DNA of 64,000 nucleotides from the NCBI GenBank assembly GCA_964389655.1, contig CAYMED010000014.1:1-64000 (forward strand), given 5' to 3'. Origin of the DNA: an uncultured Candidatus Poseidoniales archaeon. GTDB lineage: Archaea > Thermoplasmatota > Poseidoniia > Poseidoniales > CAYMED01. The notes beneath the pieces are model-generated. The model was not told the DNA's origin. It saw only the letters and a program-made list of their open reading frames with translations, and made no database searches. Below, piece by piece: positions 27,708 through 39,361 of this stretch; the first letter of the stretch is position 1; each line of letters begins with the position of its first letter. A program made the translations under genes and the position numbers.

Positions 27708-30700
27708 CTACCACCGGCCCCCATAATCATCCCATGATTCGCCAGGATATTGTTGAATATTGCCTGGCCCATGTCCATGTTGTGGAGATTCTTGATTGGC
27801 CCAGGGATCTGATGAATCAGACGATAATATTTGGTCTACATCTTCAATCGCTTCCCATACTCTTCGGTCCAACAGGCGAAATTGCCCTTCAGTTAGTTTA
27901 TCACGGGCAGATAACTCCTCTATTTTTCTAGAATAAGCCCGCAAGGAACGCCGTTGAAATTGGAGGTCGTCTTGGTGATTGATTATTCGATCTAGATCTC
28001 GCTGAAGATTACCAAAGACGCCTTTTCGGCGACTAGAGGCGAATATTCCTCCAAAAACCACTAACATTGCCAATAAAAGGCCAGTTAAGTCGAGAATTGA
28101 GAGGTCATAGCCCAAAACCCGCACAACTGCTTCAGAAGATTCGCTCGAAAGATTCGCCGTGGCGTCTCCACTTCTGAGAACATCTTCCTCGACTTCCGAA
28201 ACTGGCACAATGGGCCCAATCACAGTTGCTGAGTTAAAGTCCCCGTTCCCCGCAGTATCAATTGCAATTATCATCAAGTAATATACTCCTTTAGACGAGA
28301 TATTTGATGAGCCATTTTCGTCAGCCACAGTTGCGAGCCAACTTGCTTGAGAACGTAATGAAAGCGTAACTGTTGGGGATGCATTCAACTGTATGGGATG
28401 TGAATAGAGATAAATCGCATAATGTGAAAAGTCATCTGCAAAAGAAACATTCCACTCGGCAAGAAGGCGGGTTCCATCATCGTTTGGCCAATTTGTAAGA
28501 CGAACATTCTGAACAGGAGAGGGGGGGGTGAGATCATTTCGATTATCCACTGAACTCCCATATCCAACATTGTATGCTGTACGGTCTACCCGACCCTGTG
28601 CATCAATTGCAAGGACTACGGCATAGAACACCACATCCGGAACCACGGGAGAGCCATCATCTGTTTCTTCAACAAGAATTTCGCGGACACCAGCAGCATT
28701 TGCAGCAACAACAAATGTTGATGGGGGGATTTGACCTGAAAATGGGGTGGAAGAGATATGGATTTCATAACTGACAACATCAGGCTCCTCACTTGAAGTG
28801 AAACGAACCAATAGTCCATCGCCTAAATCATCAGGGGCATCCAATACTTCTACGCCTTCCACTAAAGGGGGGGGGTTTTGGTCAAGGTTGGGGCTAAGTA
28901 AAAGAGTGGAAAATGTGCGATTAGATTCCCCACCATAATCTTCCGCCTCGAGGACACATTCAACCAATATTTCACTCACTAATTCACTGATTCCAAATTT
29001 ATTAAGAGAAATTCGTTGCCAGCCACTAGAGCCACCTTCCTGTGTCCAAATATCATCCAACCTCTCTTCAGAAATTCCACATTGAAGAGACACGCGGGAT
29101 ATGTCCGATTCACCAAACTCCGGCCACATTGCGATGAATGCTTCAACTGCCTGGCCTTCAGCATAAATCATTGACATCCGAGGCATTTGAGGGGGTACAT
29201 CATTGGAGAGAGAAATTGCAGCTGTTTGAAGATATTCTGGGCGGGATTGTTGGCCACTAGAGTCTATTGAAGTAATGTAAACCTCATGGGGGTCATTGCT
29301 CTCAAAGTTGATGATTGTGTTACGCACATTCTTTGGTATGATTTTGAAATTTGATTCCGTATCACCACCCACTAATCCCCAACTAATTAGAAACTCCTTA
29401 AAGTCTGTTGTTGTATTTGGCATGTTCCAAGTAAAGTTGATGGAAGTGTCGTCGGTTGGGAGATCACGTGCTTGGATTGAGATTGGTGGTTCGGGAGGCT
29501 CATCAATTAGAATATGCTCAACTTCATCAAAATAGACCTCCGCATTCTTCTCATCCATGCCAGATACACTAACCAAAATCATATCACCAGGTAATGATTC
29601 TGTACCAAGGGATACTTCAACATTGGTCACTGATGATTCCCAAGGTATAGTATCACTCCAAAGTGCGTTGCCCTCATCATCTAATACCTCAACATCTAGG
29701 TGATGGGGTTGAGGAGACACTGAAGTTGGTTCAATCCACACAGAGAATTCAGTTCCATCGTCTCCAAATTTGTCTACTGTCCATAGTTCATATGCCGCGG
29801 GGCGTGAAGTTTCTAAGCGCCAACCAATAGATGAAAGGAGCGGGGCTCCAGCATCCATTTCACTCGTGTCGAAGTTGATTGATAGGTTCTCAATTTGAGA
29901 TTCGGGGCCCAACTCAAGTACGCCTGTGCAATTAAGAGGGTTGGATACTTCTTTTCCATTGACGAAGCCTATAACTTCTATTTGAATATCTAATTCGGTA
30001 AAATCACCATTTTTATCGACAGGTGGAGCACAAGCAACTTGAGATATCCATTGTTCATTATTCATAGGAGGAATCAATTCTAGGGATTCTTCTTTCTTTG
30101 AAAGAATCCAATTTAGGCCATCTCCCTGGGCTCCTTCAAATGTTGAAAATGAACTATGTGATCCAAATAAAGCATCCAGTCGTACCCCACCATCAGGGGT
30201 TCCAACCACCCCAAACAACTTAATTTCGGGGGGGTTTTGGCCACAGAACTTAACCTTCAGGCGGACTTCACCCACTGGCGTGTCAATACGAAGGGGCTTC
30301 ATTCCTGAAGCCTCCATAGTAAATTGAAACATGTCACCCACATCTGGTGTAATTTCTATTTCTAAGCGCGAATTACTAGACTCACCAACTGATGGAGGAA
30401 AGTTACCATCAATGATTAACCAAGCTTGGAGAGTATCTTCTTCAATCTCAATAGGGTTTTTTGTCTGCATCCAGCCAACACACCCACTTTGAGAACCCTT
30501 TCCTATGCCTTTCCCTTGGTTTGATGGGGGGCGTGAATTATCAGTGGGATGTATGGTTCCATTTGCTTCATCAAGTTCAACACCCGTATGAGAAAAGCGA
30601 TCTGAGAAACGTGTTGAGTCAGTAAATGTCTCAGTCAGCCGCCAACCAGGCACACCACCTTCGTTATCATCGGCGGCCCCGAATGGCGTCGGTGATGAGG

Positions 30701-30779
30701 AAGATATCTGAAACAATGGACCACACGGGAGGAAAAAAAGCAGAATAGCGCCGAAGGCGGCGCATCTTCGCCGACTCAT
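27708..30779 (-). CDS. Large secreted, C-terminally anchored protein with about four fibronectin type III repeats
   Basis: Signal peptide; repeats D-x2-PP-x-V...W...D-x3-Y-x-I...AID-x2-G; C-terminal TM plus cytoplasmic helical tail. Confidence 0.85.
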   Translation of the reverse strand: MSRRRCAAFGAILLFFLPCGPLFQISSSSPTPFGAADDNEGGVPGWRLTETFTDSTRFSDRFSHTGVELDEANGTIHPTDNSRPPSNQGKGIGKGSQSGCVGWMQTKNPIEIEEDTLQAWLIIDGNFPPSVGESSNSRLEIEITPDVGDMFQFTMEASGMKPLRIDTPVGEVRLKVKFCGQNPPEIKLFGVVGTPDGGVRLDALFGSHSSFSTFEGAQGDGLNWILSKKEESLELIPPMNNEQWISQVACAPPVDKNGDFTELDIQIEVIGFVNGKEVSNPLNCTGVLELGPESQIENLSINFDTSEMDAGAPLLSSIGWRLETSRPAAYELWTVDKFGDDGTEFSVWIEPTSVSPQPHHLDVEVLDDEGNALWSDTIPWESSVTNVEVSLGTESLPGDMILVSVSGMDEKNAEVYFDEVEHILIDEPPEPPISIQARDLPTDDTSINFTWNMPNTTTDFKEFLISWGLVGGDTESNFKIIPKNVRNTIINFESNDPHEVYITSIDSSGQQSRPEYLQTAAISLSNDVPPQMPRMSMIYAEGQAVEAFIAMWPEFGESDISRVSLQCGISEERLDDIWTQEGGSSGWQRISLNKFGISELVSEILVECVLEAEDYGGESNRTFSTLLLSPNLDQNPPPLVEGVEVLDAPDDLGDGLLVRFTSSEEPDVVSYEIHISSTPFSGQIPPSTFVVAANAAGVREILVEETDDGSPVVPDVVFYAVVLAIDAQGRVDRTAYNVGYGSSVDNRNDLTPPSPVQNVRLTNWPNDDGTRLLAEWNVSFADDFSHYAIYLYSHPIQLNASPTVTLSLRSQASWLATVADENGSSNISSKGVYYLMIIAIDTAGNGDFNSATVIGPIVPVSEVEEDVLRSGDATANLSSESSEAVVRVLGYDLSILDLTGLLLAMLVVFGGIFASSRRKGVFGNLQRDLDRIINHQDDLQFQRRSLRAYSRKIEELSARDKLTEGQFRLLDRRVWEAIEDVDQILSSDSSDPWANQESPQHGHGPGNIQQYPGESWDDYGGRW

Positions 30780-33829: not shown

Positions 33830-34276
33830 TTAATCAGATAATGGACCCAATGATAAGAACACATAAGCCGCTTGAACATACATTAAAAGTGAGATTAAGA
33901 AGAGCACTAAGCCAGAGGATCCGGGTAATATATTGCTTCCACCATAGATTATTGAAAATATGCAAATTAGTGTTGCGCATGATAGCGTATATTTGATTGA
34001 ATGAAGGGGATTTCTGATTTCATTAACACGGGGAACTAAGCCGTTACGCCTAAATTTATATCTAAACCAAGCGAGATATAAACATCCAAGACCAAATATT
34101 CCCAATAACCCGTCAGTAAATGCCCCATCATTCCAAGGGCCAGGGTACCCTGGGTGCGCATAAAATAAAGCAATCAGCAACACACCAAGAGCACCGATTC
34201 GCCCGCTGTTCAAGTCCGTCCCCATTAAGCCTAAGAAGAAGCGGGGTGATTTCAAAGGAGAACCCTTGCCGGCCAT
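33830..34276 (-). CDS. Hypothetical four-TM membrane protein
   Basis: 148 aa with four hydrophobic segments; start uncertain. Confidence 0.65.
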   Translation of the reverse strand: MAGKGSPLKSPRFFLGLMGTDLNSGRIGALGVLLIALFYAHPGYPGPWNDGAFTDGLLGIFGLGCLYLAWFRYKFRRNGLVPRVNEIRNPLHSIKYTLSCATLICIFSIIYGGSNILPGSSGLVLFLISLLMYVQAAYVFLSLGPLSD

Positions 34277-35575
34277 GTGAATGGTCCAAAGGAGGCAATC
34301 CTGCTAGCAGGGGGAATTGGCAGCCGCATGCTTCCAGCAAGCATGGTTACTCCAAAAGAGGCCCTTCCTTTGGTAGATATGCCTCAAATATTCTTACTTG
34401 CTGCTGAAGCAAAGTTGGCAGGAGTGAAAACATTTCATGTTGTGTTTTCACCTGAAAAAATGTATCTTGCCAACTTGCTAAAATTCGATGAAGGGAAAGT
34501 TAACCATATTAATCATTTAAGGAAAGATATTGACCAAAGGTGGACTCGGATCTTTGATAAGAATTTCAGACTCATCATTCATACCCAACAAGAAGCAAAA
34601 GGCGTAGGTGATGCATTAATGCAGGCACTGCCATCAATAGAAGGAGAAGTTCTGGTGATGTTTGGAGACAATATCATCCTAGATCAGCACACATCGCCCT
34701 CTGATTGGACACCATCCACTGCGTCGTTGAGGTTAGTAGAAGAATACCGAAAAACAAAGAGACCAATTGTAGGGTTAATTAAGGTGCCAATAAATGAGAT
34801 TGACAAATATGGCATCGTAGAGTTGGATGGGAAAAGAATAGCAAAAATTGTGGAAAAGCCAAAACAAAACAATGCACCATCAAACCTCGCAATATGCGGT
34901 CGATATATTATGGGAAAAGATACTAGACATTTTTTAGAGACGAAAACTGAAAATTGGGACATGCAGTCCATTGACCTCCTTAAGTCATGGATCGCCCAAG
35001 AAGGGGGCCTCATTGGAATTGAACTCATCAATATGCAATGGTATGATTCAGGAGACCCCGTCCTCTGGTTGAAAGCGCAAGTGGATCATGTTCTTAGAAG
35101 GGTAGACCTTCAAGAGGAATTCCTTAAATGGATCAATCACCGAATTAGTGGGGGACCAAAGGGAACGATCCAAGTAGTCGCTCCTGTAGATCTAGTCCCC
35201 CTTATAGAATTACGACCCCATGAAGATATACGTGCAAGCCATTTAGAAAAAATGATTTCTACATTTACAAAAACAAATCTAATTCATCGCCCCATCTTAA
35301 TAGATAAAGGAACTGGTGCCATACTTGATGGGCATCACCGTTTCCATGCAGCGCAAGAAATGGGACTGAATTATATTCCTTCTATCATGGTTCATTATTT
35401 AGAAGACCCCCGAGTTTCTGTCGAAGCATGGCCTAATTCAGGATATTCTAGCATTTCTAAGCAAGAAGTAATAGAAATGGCCCTTTCAGCCAATTTATAC
35501 CCCCCAAAATCAACCCGTCACCATATCGACATGCCAATCCCTGGAATCGCGATCTCACTTGAAGAACTTGTATAA
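34277..35575 (+). CDS. GalU-like nucleotidyltransferase fused to a C-terminal ParB/Srx (SerK/SbnI-like) domain
   Basis: N-terminal: AGGIGSRMLPA...PKEALPLVD, KYGIV, VEKP, APSNLA-x2-GRY, WYDSG. C-terminal: LRPHE, PILID, ILDGHHR, YPPKSTRH. Confidence 0.88.
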   Translation: MNGPKEAILLAGGIGSRMLPASMVTPKEALPLVDMPQIFLLAAEAKLAGVKTFHVVFSPEKMYLANLLKFDEGKVNHINHLRKDIDQRWTRIFDKNFRLIIHTQQEAKGVGDALMQALPSIEGEVLVMFGDNIILDQHTSPSDWTPSTASLRLVEEYRKTKRPIVGLIKVPINEIDKYGIVELDGKRIAKIVEKPKQNNAPSNLAICGRYIMGKDTRHFLETKTENWDMQSIDLLKSWIAQEGGLIGIELINMQWYDSGDPVLWLKAQVDHVLRRVDLQEEFLKWINHRISGGPKGTIQVVAPVDLVPLIELRPHEDIRASHLEKMISTFTKTNLIHRPILIDKGTGAILDGHHRFHAAQEMGLNYIPSIMVHYLEDPRVSVEAWPNSGYSSISKQEVIEMALSANLYPPKSTRHHIDMPIPGIAISLEELV

Positions 35576-35593
35576 TATATTTGAGGGATATAT

Positions 35594-38500
35594 TTGAAAG
35601 AGGGCGTAGAAAAGAAATTACGCGATCTTTTAAAAGAAAAAATTGTTATCCTAGATGGGGCAATGGGCACAATGATTCAGACATTTAACCTGAATGAAGA
35701 GGACTTTCGGGGAGAACTGTTTGAAGGACACAATATTGACCTCAAAGGAAATAATGAAACTTTAAATCTCACAAATCCAGAGATTATTCTAGATATTCAC
35801 AGGGCATATCTTTCAGCCGGTTGTGACATTATTGAAACAAATACATTTGGCGCTACTTCAATTACTCAAGAAGAATATGGCCTAGACAATCATGCACGTG
35901 AAATGAATTTAAAGGCCGCAAAAATTGCAAGAAAGGCAGTTGATGAAGAAAATAATGAACATGGGGAGGTAAAGAAATTCGTCGCCGGGGCAGTTGGACC
36001 AACGAACCGGACACTTTCTTCATCTGAAAGTGTTGATGACCCATCTGCCAGAACAATTACTTTTGACCAAATCTATGATGCATATTTTGATCAAATCACC
36101 GCACTGATTGAAGGAGGAGTTGACATAATCCTCATTGAAACAATTTTCGATGTATTAAATGCAAAGGCCGCTATTTCAGCGGCGCTTGACGCGTTTGAAA
36201 CAATGGATATTCACTTACCAATAATTATCTCTGTGACGTTCATACAAGAAGGAAGTAATCGAACTGTTTTTGGGCAGACTGTTGATGCTTTTTGGGCAAC
36301 AGTTGCACATGCAAAGCCCCTTTCTGTTGGAATAAATTGCGGCTTAGGGGCACGTGCTATTGTTGGAAATATGAAGGAATTAGCACGGATTTCGAATACA
36401 TACACGCATTGTTATCCAAACGCTGGCCTCCCAAATCCCCTAAGTGATACTGGTTTTGATGAAACCCCCGAGGTTACGGCTTTTGAGATCAAAGAAATGG
36501 CCACACGGGGTTTGCTCAACATAGTTGGAGGGTGTTGTGGTACAACACCCAGCCATATACTGGAAATTGTAAGCGCAACAAAGGGGATCCCACCGCGGTT
36601 GATCAAACAAGAGGGGGAGGTGTCAAAACTTGGAATCCCGAATCTAGAAATAATGGATGGTCATATACACAGCAAAGATTGCCACAATAAATGGCCCCAC
36701 GACCATACCACTTTTGCCGGGTTGGAAACATACGAAATGCCCCCATCATCAACATTTACTGTCATAGGTGAAAGGACAAATGTTACTGGTTCTGCGGCCT
36801 TTCGCCGCCTTATTGAAAGAAATGATTTTGAGAGTGCATTGGCTATTGCGCGGCAACAAGTCTCATCGGGGGCAAACATCATTGATATCAATATGGATGA
36901 AGGGATGTTAGACTCGAAATCTTGCATGGTTAAATTTCTTAACCTTATATCAACTGAACCAGAAATATCTAAGATACCAATTATGATTGATAGTTCCGAT
37001 TGGGAAGTGATCAAGGCAGGAATAAAATGCGTACAAGGCAAGCCAATCATAAATTCAATCAGCCTTAAAGAAGGAAGTGAAGATTTTCTAGAGAAAGCAA
37101 AATTCATCAAACAGTATGGTGCTGCGGTCGTTGTAATGGCATTTGATGAAGATGGGCAAGCAGAATCTATCGAGAGAAAAGTCGAAATTTGTAAGCGATC
37201 ATACAAATTGTTGGTGCATGATGTTGGAATGAATCCCTTAGACATTATTTTTGACCCGAACATCTTAGCTATTGGAACGGGCATAAAGGAACATGACAAT
37301 TTTGCTGTCAATTTCATAGAATCAATAAAGAGGATAAAGGAGCAATGCCCTGGTGTGAAAATATCAGGGGGCGTTAGCAATTTATCATTCTCATTCAGGG
37401 GGAATGATGTACTAAGAGAAGCAATGCACTCTGCATTCTTATATCATGCAATTCAATCTGGAATGGACATGGGTATAGTAAATGCCAGTCAATTATCTAT
37501 CTATGAGCAAATCCCGGAAGACCTCCTTAAAGTCGTTGAAGATGTTCTCTTCAATAGAAGTGATGGGGCAACAGAGGCAATGGTTGATTTTTCTCGCACG
37601 TTATCATCAAAACATGTAGTGGATGAAAAAAAATTGGAATGGAGAAATAACGATTTGAATGAACGATTGAGATATGCATTAATTCACGGCATCAATGATT
37701 TTATTGAAGAAGATATTGATGAGGCAAGAAAGCAATATGCTACACCATTAGAAGTTATAGAAGGTCCACTGATGAAAGGAATGTCTGTTGTGGGAGATTT
37801 ATTTGGAGAGGGGCAGATGTTTCTCCCTCAAGTCGTAAAGTCTGCGAGGACGATGAAAAGGGCCGTCAGTTATCTTGAACCATATATGCTTGGAGATGAA
37901 GGTGAAAGCATTTCGAGAGGCGTGATCATTCTTGCCACTGTGAAAGGAGATGTACATGATATCGGGAAAAATATTGTGGGTGTGGTGCTTAGTTGTAATA
38001 ACTACACAATAATTGACCTTGGGGTGATGGTTTCGTGTGATGAGATATTGTCTGCTGCAATAAAGCATAATGCCGATTTAATTGGGCTATCTGGATTGAT
38101 TACACCATCACTAAAAGAAATGGGAAATGTCGCAAAGGAGATGAATTTGAGAGGGATGAACATACCATTGCTCATTGGAGGGGCAACTACAAGCCGCCAG
38201 CATACTGCTGTGAAAATCGCTCCCGAATATAAATCACCGGTGGTTTATGTAAGAGATGCGTCAAGAGTATCTGCAATAGCAAGCCAACTCATAGACTTAG
38301 AGAAAAAGGAACTCTTTGTTAAAGAAAACGGCATTAGTCAAAAAGAAATAAGGGAAAAGTACAGTGAGATCAATAGGAGAAAAACACGACCGATGAAGGA
38401 AATACGTGAAAACAAAATGGATATCAAATGGAATAGAAATGACATACCAACGGTCCCATTTATTGGATTGAAATTACTGAAAGATATATCATTAGAAGTT

Positions 38501-39361
38501 CTTCGACCATTCATCGATTGGACTTTTTTCTTTACATCCTGGGACATACCAAAACGGTATCCAGCAGTGCTTGATGATAAAAAATATGGGTCTGCTGCCA
38601 ATGAATTATTCGATGATGCAAATGTAATCATCGATCAAATGATTGAAGAAAAGTGGACGGTCGCAAGTGCTGCATATGGATTTTGGCCTGCTTCTAGTTC
38701 TGAAGACGACATTATCATTTTCGATGAAAAAAGGAAAAGTGAGCTATTGCGCTTCAATATGCTTAGGCAACAACAAGATAGGGGGGGCTCTATTTACCAT
38801 TGTTTAGCTGATTTCATAGCTCCTGAAAATGAAGACTTTAATGATCACTTAGGGTTATTTGCAGTCACTTCAGGTACGGGTATGGAAGAGCGAGCATTGG
38901 CTTATGAACAGGAAAAAGATGATTACAATGGGATTATGGTGCGATTGATTGCTGACCGGTTTGCTGAAGCATGTGCTGAATGGTTACATGCCGAAGTTAG
39001 AAGCGAATGGGGATTTGCTGATGATAAGTCAAGCAATATTGATGATTTGTTGAAAGAAAATTATCGAAGTATCAGGCCGGCATTTGGATATCCTGCTTGT
39101 CCAGATCATTCAGAATTAGTCAAGGTATTTCATCTATTAAACGCAAATAAAATTGGGATGGAGTTAACCGAAACATGCGCAATTATGCCCGCCGCTAGTG
39201 TTAGTGGGTTATATTTTTCACACCCAAAAGCACAGTATTTTTCGATCGGAAAAATTGATCAGATGCAAGTAGAAGATTATGCAAAAAGGAAGGGAGAAAC
39301 GTTGGAATTCATTGAAGAGGCACTGTATATGAATCTTGGATATTTTCCAAAAGATGATTAA
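35594..39361 (+). CDS. metH: Cobalamin-dependent methionine synthase, full-length four-module form
   Basis: LDGAMGT, Zn ligands INC and GGCCGT, IGERTN, B12 motif DVHDIG, reactivation domain [12 protein letters not shown]; 1255 aa. Confidence 0.97.

Follow-up and report, generated by a model that had tools for sequence, protein, structure and literature searches.

A stretch of 64,000 nucleotides from an uncultured Candidatus Poseidoniales archaeon (positions 1 to 64,000 of contig CAYMED010000014.1, assembly GCA_964389655.1), in the following called the window, contains a single open reading frame (ORF) that joins a GalU-like sugar-1-phosphate nucleotidylyltransferase domain to a C-terminal domain of the ParB/Srx fold. 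The C-terminal domain is predicted from its sequence and its modelled structure to be the catalytic core of the serine kinases SerK and SbnI without the inserted domain of SerK, and it is therefore termed mini-SerK here. The fusion is real, conserved and lineage-specific. We regard the protein, at about even chances, as a putative bifunctional enzyme that combines a UDP-hexose-type pyrophosphorylase with a SerK-type small-molecule phosphotransferase, and we place it tentatively in nucleotide-sugar or glycoconjugate metabolism. New are the architecture and the minimal form of the SerK core, and a literature search found no paper on this fusion or on the mini-SerK family of the Poseidoniales. 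The Poseidoniales, also known as Marine Group II, are among the dominant archaea of the surface ocean. The features of the fused gene are the following:

34277-35575, plus strand: whole fusion ORF, 432 residues, GTG start and TAA stop
34277-35146, plus strand: N-terminal GalU-like sugar-1-phosphate nucleotidylyltransferase domain, residues 1-290
34955-34975, plus strand: WDMQSID, residues 227-233, at the position of the GalU sugar-site motif GEIQLTD in the alignments
35147-35188, plus strand: linker including GGPKG, residues 291-304, a low-confidence stretch in the structural model
35189-35572, plus strand: C-terminal mini-SerK domain of the ParB/Srx fold, residues 305-432, as predicted by phmmer, AlphaFold2 and Foldseek
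35222-35224, plus strand: Glu316 of LRPHE, aligned with Glu30 of SerK
35327-35341, plus strand: DGHHR, residues 351-355, invariant or nearly so in the alignments A2, A5 and A6
35501-35521, plus strand: PPKSTRH, residues 409-415, counterpart of the C-terminal SPKTTRH of SerK in the alignments

The ORF contains all motifs quoted in an earlier note that was made from the letters of this DNA alone, namely the ISGGPKG linker, LRPHE, PILID, ILDGHHR, VSVEAW and LYPPKSTRH, and the absence of an internal start at the junction, which that note had reported, is borne out, as no in-frame ATG, GTG or TTG is found in 35147-35200. The note had asked for a check of reads across 35140-35170, and this region is spanned without indels by Logan contigs of four runs, of which X1, X2 and X3 belong to one study and possibly represent the source samples, and X5 belongs to a second study. 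The identical 432-residue protein is recorded as the protein cluster P0002, and the same fusion is present in a sister species, in contigs from four different sources and in the genome G001. The fusion protein of the sister species is only about 40% identical, and two gaps shorten its linker by about 11 residues. The architecture is rare, and a full-length search gave only four fused clusters. A sequencing or assembly artefact or a pseudogene is effectively refuted and extremely improbable, as no point in support of it was found, the junction is intact in contigs of two studies, the frame is open along the entire gene, and independent sister-species assemblies carry the same fusion. At the locus L015 of the sister species (G001:C30, 1-230) the contig begins inside the fused gene, and its 5' end is occupied by an unrelated frame on the minus strand; an assembly break or a chimeric end of the contig is the probable cause.

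The GalU-like nature of the N-terminal half, which had been read from the sequence in the note, is recovered by profile searches. Residues 7-262 match the Pfam family NTP_transferase (PF00483; E 4.7e-18, 66.1 bits), the NCBIfam GalU model TIGR01099 is matched with an E value of 1e-35 (123.6 bits, below the equivalog cut-off of 326.8), and residues 5-290 match the GalU structure 4d48 in the Protein Data Bank (PDB) with an E value of 2.5e-23 (about 86 bits). The characteristic features of NTP_transferase, which are the GxGxR...PKE loop, the Mg-binding Asp and the VEKP lysine, are present and align with the GalU structures, and all invariants of the Poseidoniales GalU-like family are retained (GxGxR, PKE, Q104, GDN, VEKP and YDSG in alignment A3). 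With GalU (for example 2e3d of E. coli, and 4d48), the domain shares a full-length alignment of about 285 residues that includes the glycine-rich loop, PKE, VEKPK, APSNLA..GRY and the C-terminal helices, but the similarity is weak (E about 1e-23, well under the NCBIfam cut-off), and the fusion protein differs by its W-D in place of GE and by the extra C-terminal domain. As the note had pointed out, WDMQSID aligns with GEIQLTD of GalU; this change of the sugar site is, however, an oddity of one gene and not of the fusion family, since GE[LMF]Q[ST][IV] is kept in all 18 aligned relatives, fused or unfused, and W-D occurs only in the protein of this genome.

In the other Poseidoniales examined, the orthologue of the N-domain is encoded by a separate gene of 285 residues that has the same synteny. 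In the full-length search, its close relatives are otherwise proteins of 282-360 residues, most of them 285, that cover about two thirds of the query. The stand-alone genes lie head-to-head with the gene of a membrane protein of about 140 residues and beside RNase H and GcvH genes, and no ParB-like gene was found near them in the loci examined. The N-domain is closer to its unfused orthologues (47-48% identity) than to the other fused form (38%).

The resemblance of the C-terminal half to SerK and SbnI, which the note had proposed from motifs, is supported by sequence and by predicted fold. The domain alone finds the PDB entry 5x0b of SerK in phmmer with an E value of 4.9e-13, and it matches the NCBIfam models of SerK (1.7e-14, 53.5 bits, equivalog cut-off 380) and SbnI (1.1e-05, 24.9 bits, cut-off 350), in both cases below the cut-off. 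The match to SerK comes in two pieces, which correspond to SerK residues 21-104 (the ParB/Srx domain) and 204-241 (the SPKTTRH tail); the second HMMER stretch aligns query residues 102-139 with SerK 204-241. The middle domain of SerK, roughly residues 105-203 and thus about 100 residues, is missing, and the Pfam family SerK_C (PF18231) is not matched. In the alignment, the SerK-type insertion falls exactly at a loop of 5-8 residues in mini-SerK, and the spacing from DGHHR to PPK is 58 residues in the C-domain compared with about 155 in SerK-type proteins. An AlphaFold2 model of the domain, built on a 76-sequence alignment, reached a predicted local distance difference test score (pLDDT) of 95.8. 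The Foldseek comparison for which the note had called placed SerK 5x0b first (E 7e-10, query-normalised template modelling score 0.85), followed by SbnI (E 1.4e-07), with ParB/Noc and sulfiredoxin (Srx) far behind (E for Srx about 1e-3 to 1e-2).

Little or no variation is seen in the family at Glu316, D351-G-H-H-R355, Y374, W385, K395, K411 and H415 (none at Glu316, D351, K411 and H415), and all of these residues are kept in the C-domain of this genome in spite of its long branch. The counterpart of Glu316 in SerK, Glu30, is mutated (E30A/E30Q) in entries of substrate-trapped SerK crystals, as given by the PDB titles. We presume the role of Glu30 from these titles. As the SerK equivalog model was missed by a wide distance and SerK_C was not matched, the C-domain is not filed as a serine kinase outright; it is probably a variant that works like one. 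A ParB-type CTP-dependent DNA clamp was rejected, as the domain has only about 130 residues and ends the protein, with no C-terminal dimerisation domain behind it, its Pfam ParB_N score of 19.5 bits is under the gathering threshold of 26.3, and no helix-turn-helix (HTH) family was found in the Pfam search, in agreement with the note. A sulfiredoxin was also rejected: the catalytic cysteine of sulfiredoxins lies in an FGGCHR motif, and the C-domain has DGHHR, without Cys, instead.

To our knowledge, SerK and SbnI are the only small-molecule kinases of the ParB/Srx fold that have been characterised biochemically. SerK (TK0378 of Thermococcus kodakarensis, PDB 5x0b/5x0e/5x0j; orthologue PF0380, 1vk1) is an ADP-dependent kinase of free L-serine that acts in cysteine synthesis and serine use (PMC5120207). 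It is the best match of the C-domain in both sequence and fold, with which it shares the ParB/Srx fold, the glutamate of PHE, DGHHR, the conserved Tyr and Trp and the C-terminal PK(T/S)TRH tail, but it possesses the middle domain and is not fused to a nucleotidyltransferase. SbnI of Staphylococcus (PDB 5ujd, 5uje, 6nr6) is an ATP-dependent kinase of free serine in staphyloferrin B synthesis; it has the same catalytic core (E 9e-05 in sequence, about 1e-07 in fold) and differs by its own C-terminal helical domain and by the naming as "bifunctional transcriptional regulator" in PDB and NCBIfam, neither of which applies to the C-domain. DUF1015/SerBK (GapMind 2026, PMC13759103) is a distant relative within this serine-kinase-like superfamily, and four stand-alone mini-SerK proteins match DUF1015 weakly (best E 0.0011); its genetic link to serA/serC is not seen here, however, and stand-alone mini-SerK proteins have only about 140 residues. 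All these characterised or genetically implicated relatives are tied to serine or phosphoserine (PMC5120207; PMC13759103).

An exhaustive domain-only HMMER search in 1.84 billion representatives (E <= 0.001) found 1468 relatives of mini-SerK, many of them stand-alone proteins of 125-160 residues. Among the Poseidoniales, mini-SerK is present in 150 of the 151 genomes sampled, and none of the 22 genera lacks it; with few exceptions, it is encoded by a small ORF of its own of about 140 residues. The fused form occurs in these 151 genomes only in the family of the window, that is in the genome of the window itself (G000, 93% complete) and in G001 of the same genus, and in G000 the fused gene is the sole copy of each part. 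The note had named unlinked genes in relatives as an observation that would speak against its proposal. GalU-like and mini-SerK genes are indeed unlinked in every Poseidoniales locus examined outside the family of the window, which weakens the case for a coupling of the two halves.

Further architectures were seen among the relatives. Many proteins of 200-350 residues (P0138-P0218) have N-terminal extensions that resemble the bipartite plastid signals of the diatom type, with a signal peptide that ends in ...(A/S)xAF, which points to mini-SerK proteins of marine algae that are targeted to plastids. Another group, P0123-P0128, shows tandem duplication, with DPTSYFY as a repeated motif. Single clusters fuse a domain of the mini type to a pyridoxal-phosphate-dependent enzyme similar to CysK/M (P0159), to a SufS-like cysteine desulfurase (P0249), to a flavin-reductase domain (P0241) and to a hexapeptide-repeat domain (P0203).

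The genomic context of about 100 mini-SerK loci revealed two arrangements, which represent two paralogues, A and B. Paralogue A is divergent from a bacterial-type gene of the CCA/poly(A)-polymerase family and convergent with an M61 peptidase gene; the class II PF01743 gene of that family is nearly always only about 40 nucleotides away (L010 6619-8447; L124, L126, L130, L132, L134), and the block of about ten genes is syntenic throughout the Poseidoniales. In many genomes of family f2, a gene for a SerB-like protein of the haloacid dehalogenase (HAD) superfamily lies 4-5 kb from paralogue A (G026:C1 743852 and 749152; G022:C1 165504 and 160112), which may be mere conserved synteny. Paralogue B and a pair of thymidylate-kinase (Tmk) genes point towards each other in the families f1, f2 and f3, and in the genera g5 (family f3) and g17 (family f2) paralogue B lies downstream of the genes of an LpxH-like metallophosphoesterase and an MJ1255-family glycosyltransferase, all in one orientation, with overlaps of 4 nucleotides between the glycosyltransferase, phosphoesterase and paralogue B genes in L056.

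The fused domain belongs with paralogue B, as the sister species has the Tmk pair downstream of its fused gene and as the fused sequences group with the Tmk-adjacent ones in a quick tree, apart from an 81-sequence clade of CCA-adjacent sequences (SH-aLRT, the Shimodaira-Hasegawa-like approximate likelihood ratio test, 97; the base of the tree is unresolved). In a likely course of events, a GalU-like gene would have come to lie directly upstream of the Tmk-adjacent mini-SerK paralogue, from which the fusion would have resulted. We favour one ancestral fusion with fast evolution. The identities of 47-48% to the unfused and 38% to the other fused N-domain raised the alternative of an independent double fusion, which is disfavoured by the identical upstream synteny and by the generally low identity between the genomes.

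Whereas domain identities, fold, conserved residues, phyletic pattern and synteny are established by the analyses above, the function of the protein is inferred, with respect to the two activities and the substrate as well as to a coupling of its halves. The N-domain would most likely couple uridine triphosphate (UTP), or another nucleoside triphosphate (NTP), to a hexose-1-phosphate to give a nucleoside diphosphate (NDP)-hexose, and the mini-SerK domain would most likely transfer phosphate from a nucleotide donor onto a small substrate with a hydroxyl group, for which L-serine or a similar small hydroxy compound is the first candidate by homology. The placement in nucleotide-sugar or glycoconjugate metabolism, and not in methionine or cysteine metabolism, is based on the operon of paralogue B with the glycosyltransferase and the metallophosphoesterase. 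This operon and the fusion to the GalU-like domain are the only genomic associations of paralogue B that we call nucleotide-sugar-type, and together with the retention of the fusion in two species of only about 40% identity the operon makes a link to a nucleotide-sugar pathway plausible. A source of sugar-1-phosphate is given in G000 by two genes of the phosphoglucomutase/phosphomannomutase (PGM/PMM) family, and GHMP kinases are present as well, so that a new anomeric kinase is not obviously required.

Several observations weigh against this assignment. The W-D in place of GE in the sugar motif and the long branch of the C-domain may mean that one of the halves is drifting. The full-length AlphaFold2 model shows two confident domains and a low-confidence linker (pLDDT below 50 at residues 295-299, predicted template modelling score 0.72), and it gives no confident prediction of the inter-domain geometry. 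Of the 22 genomes with this glycosyltransferase, only 3-5 show the adjacency of its gene to paralogue B. Finally, a survey of ParB-fold proteins reports that a SerK-like archaeal protein binds CTP and not ATP (PMC12704722), and this keeps a role of the domain as a switch or sensor alive.

The note had gone one step further and proposed that the two halves act in sequence, with the C-domain making a phospho-compound that the N-domain joins to a nucleoside monophosphate. This might proceed from a sugar through sugar-1-phosphate to an NDP-sugar, as in FKP of Bacteroides, or from Ser/Thr through phospho-Ser/Thr to NDP-Ser/Thr, comparable to CDP-threonine in the Fta pathway of C. difficile. We think that such a sequence is possible but unlikely. 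Enzyme fusions often mark consecutive steps, and this fusion has been retained across a deep divergence. FKP, the L-fucokinase/GDP-fucose pyrophosphorylase of Bacteroides, and HldE are bifunctional enzymes of a kinase and a nucleotidyltransferase, and thus offer a functional analogy with a pyrophosphorylase and a small-molecule kinase on one polypeptide; their kinase domains have the GHMP or PfkB fold and not the ParB/Srx fold, however, and it is for them that the sequential action is proven. The formation of CDP-threonine from CTP and phosphothreonine in the Fta pathway has been demonstrated experimentally and sets the precedent that NDP-activated phospho-amino acids exist and decorate glycans (bioRxiv 10.64898/2026.02.12.704994). 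The fusion of a mini-type domain to a CysK/M-like enzyme elsewhere also suggests that mini forms can make phosphoserine. However, FtaB/FtaD use CTP and phosphothreonine, whereas the stand-alone orthologue of the N-domain is a GalU-type hexose-1-phosphate enzyme, and the N-domain does not resemble the cytidylyltransferases LicC or FtaB. In addition, the two PGM/PMM genes can supply sugar-1-phosphate, a TagF-type phosphotransferase for an NDP-phospho-adduct was not found in the 93%-complete G000, and we know of no SerK-clade member that phosphorylates a sugar.

In its broadest form, the proposal would make mini-SerK a new minimal class of ParB/Srx-fold kinases that produces a phospho-compound, be it phosphoserine-like or a sugar phosphate, from which the GalU-like enzyme forms an NDP-adduct for the decoration of glycans or glycolipids; we hold this to be improbable, and if true, it would reveal a new NDP-activated head-group pathway in highly abundant planktonic archaea. 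The fusion matters beyond that proposal, as mini-SerK is a near-universal and uncharacterised gene with two paralogues in the Poseidoniales, which in one lineage is joined to the only GalU-like enzyme of the cell and there offers an experimental handle for assigning a function to the whole mini-SerK family. If the halves act sequentially, an additional route to NDP-activated building blocks would be obtained; if they do not, the fusion would still mark a likely serine or hydroxy-acid kinase that is now annotated as "ParB N-terminal domain protein" or not named at all.

Less probable again is that the C-domain is no kinase and serves as a nucleotide-binding regulatory or switch module, which in a manner similar to the ParB CTPases would sense NTP or NDP and tune the pyrophosphorylase. 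The neighbours of paralogue B would agree with this, as they all are pyrimidine-nucleotide enzymes (the Tmk pair, the UDP-sugar-type glycosyltransferase and the LpxH-like phosphoesterase). However, the invariant Glu at the position of SerK Glu30 and the PPK(S/T)TRH tail fit catalysis on an acceptor better than plain binding, and the domain is mostly a free-standing protein of 140 residues that has nothing to regulate in cis. The supplement text of the survey of ParB-fold proteins contains, as far as it is accessible, no entry for PF00483.

We give slightly less weight still to a neutral fusion, in which a compact genome was rearranged and a stop codon was then lost, so that a UDP-glucose pyrophosphorylase and a serine kinase of serine and cysteine metabolism were joined, and in which both parts kept their old jobs. 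Both parts are single-copy core genes, and the synteny shows the rearrangement that brought them side by side. SerK, SbnI and DUF1015/SerBK all handle serine or phosphoserine (PMC5120207; PMC13759103), and a phosphoserine-based route to cysteine is conceivable in G000, as it has two CysK/M-like genes and one SerA-like gene and no CysE was found above the cut-off. A neutral fusion leaves the glycosyltransferase operon of paralogue B in the other genera unexplained, however, and a clear phosphoserine gap does not exist: although SerB is above the cut-off in none of 61 genomes, a full-length SerB-like HAD protein with 70-85 bits is present in 60 of these 61. The related idea that mini-SerK fills a SerB gap is for the same reason not supported. 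In comparison with these alternatives, we prefer to regard the protein as a bifunctional pyrophosphorylase and small-molecule phosphotransferase.

The fused gene is flanked by two genes that have to be considered in this context:

33830-34276, minus strand: divergent small membrane protein, 148 residues as listed, head-to-head with the GalU-like gene
35594-39361, plus strand: metH, full-length, 1255 residues, TTG start

The position of metH 18 nucleotides downstream of the fusion ORF, with the TTG at 35594, is as described in the note, which had considered a supply of phosphoserine to sulfur amino-acid metabolism alongside MetH. Such a functional link does not hold up, as two Tmk genes occupy the place of metH in the sister-species loci L001-L004 and in G001; the adjacency to metH is found only in this genome and is thus without functional weight. 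A homologue of the Tmk pair was not found anywhere in the window. Upstream of the fusion, G000 and the sister species have identical synteny, and their proteins share 36-70% identity (98% for TFB). The genes near the fusion, among them those of TFB and topoisomerase VI, and the naming of their homologues assign the window to the Poseidoniales.

The real start of the small membrane protein is probably the ATG at 34225. All loci examined in three Poseidoniales families encode a membrane protein of 135-148 residues head-to-head with the GalU-like gene (for example L001 7520-7942, L005 7538-7948 and L007 3833-4240), and it may be a membrane partner in the pathway of the GalU-like enzyme; it matched no Pfam or NCBIfam family. 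At 27708-30779 on the minus strand, the window also encodes a protein of 1023 residues, which starts with a signal-like stretch and has a membrane anchor at its C-terminus, between a UDP-sugar-dehydrogenase-like gene and TerB-like genes. As these flanking genes adjoin each other in L001 of the sister species, the 1023-residue protein is an inserted surface protein.

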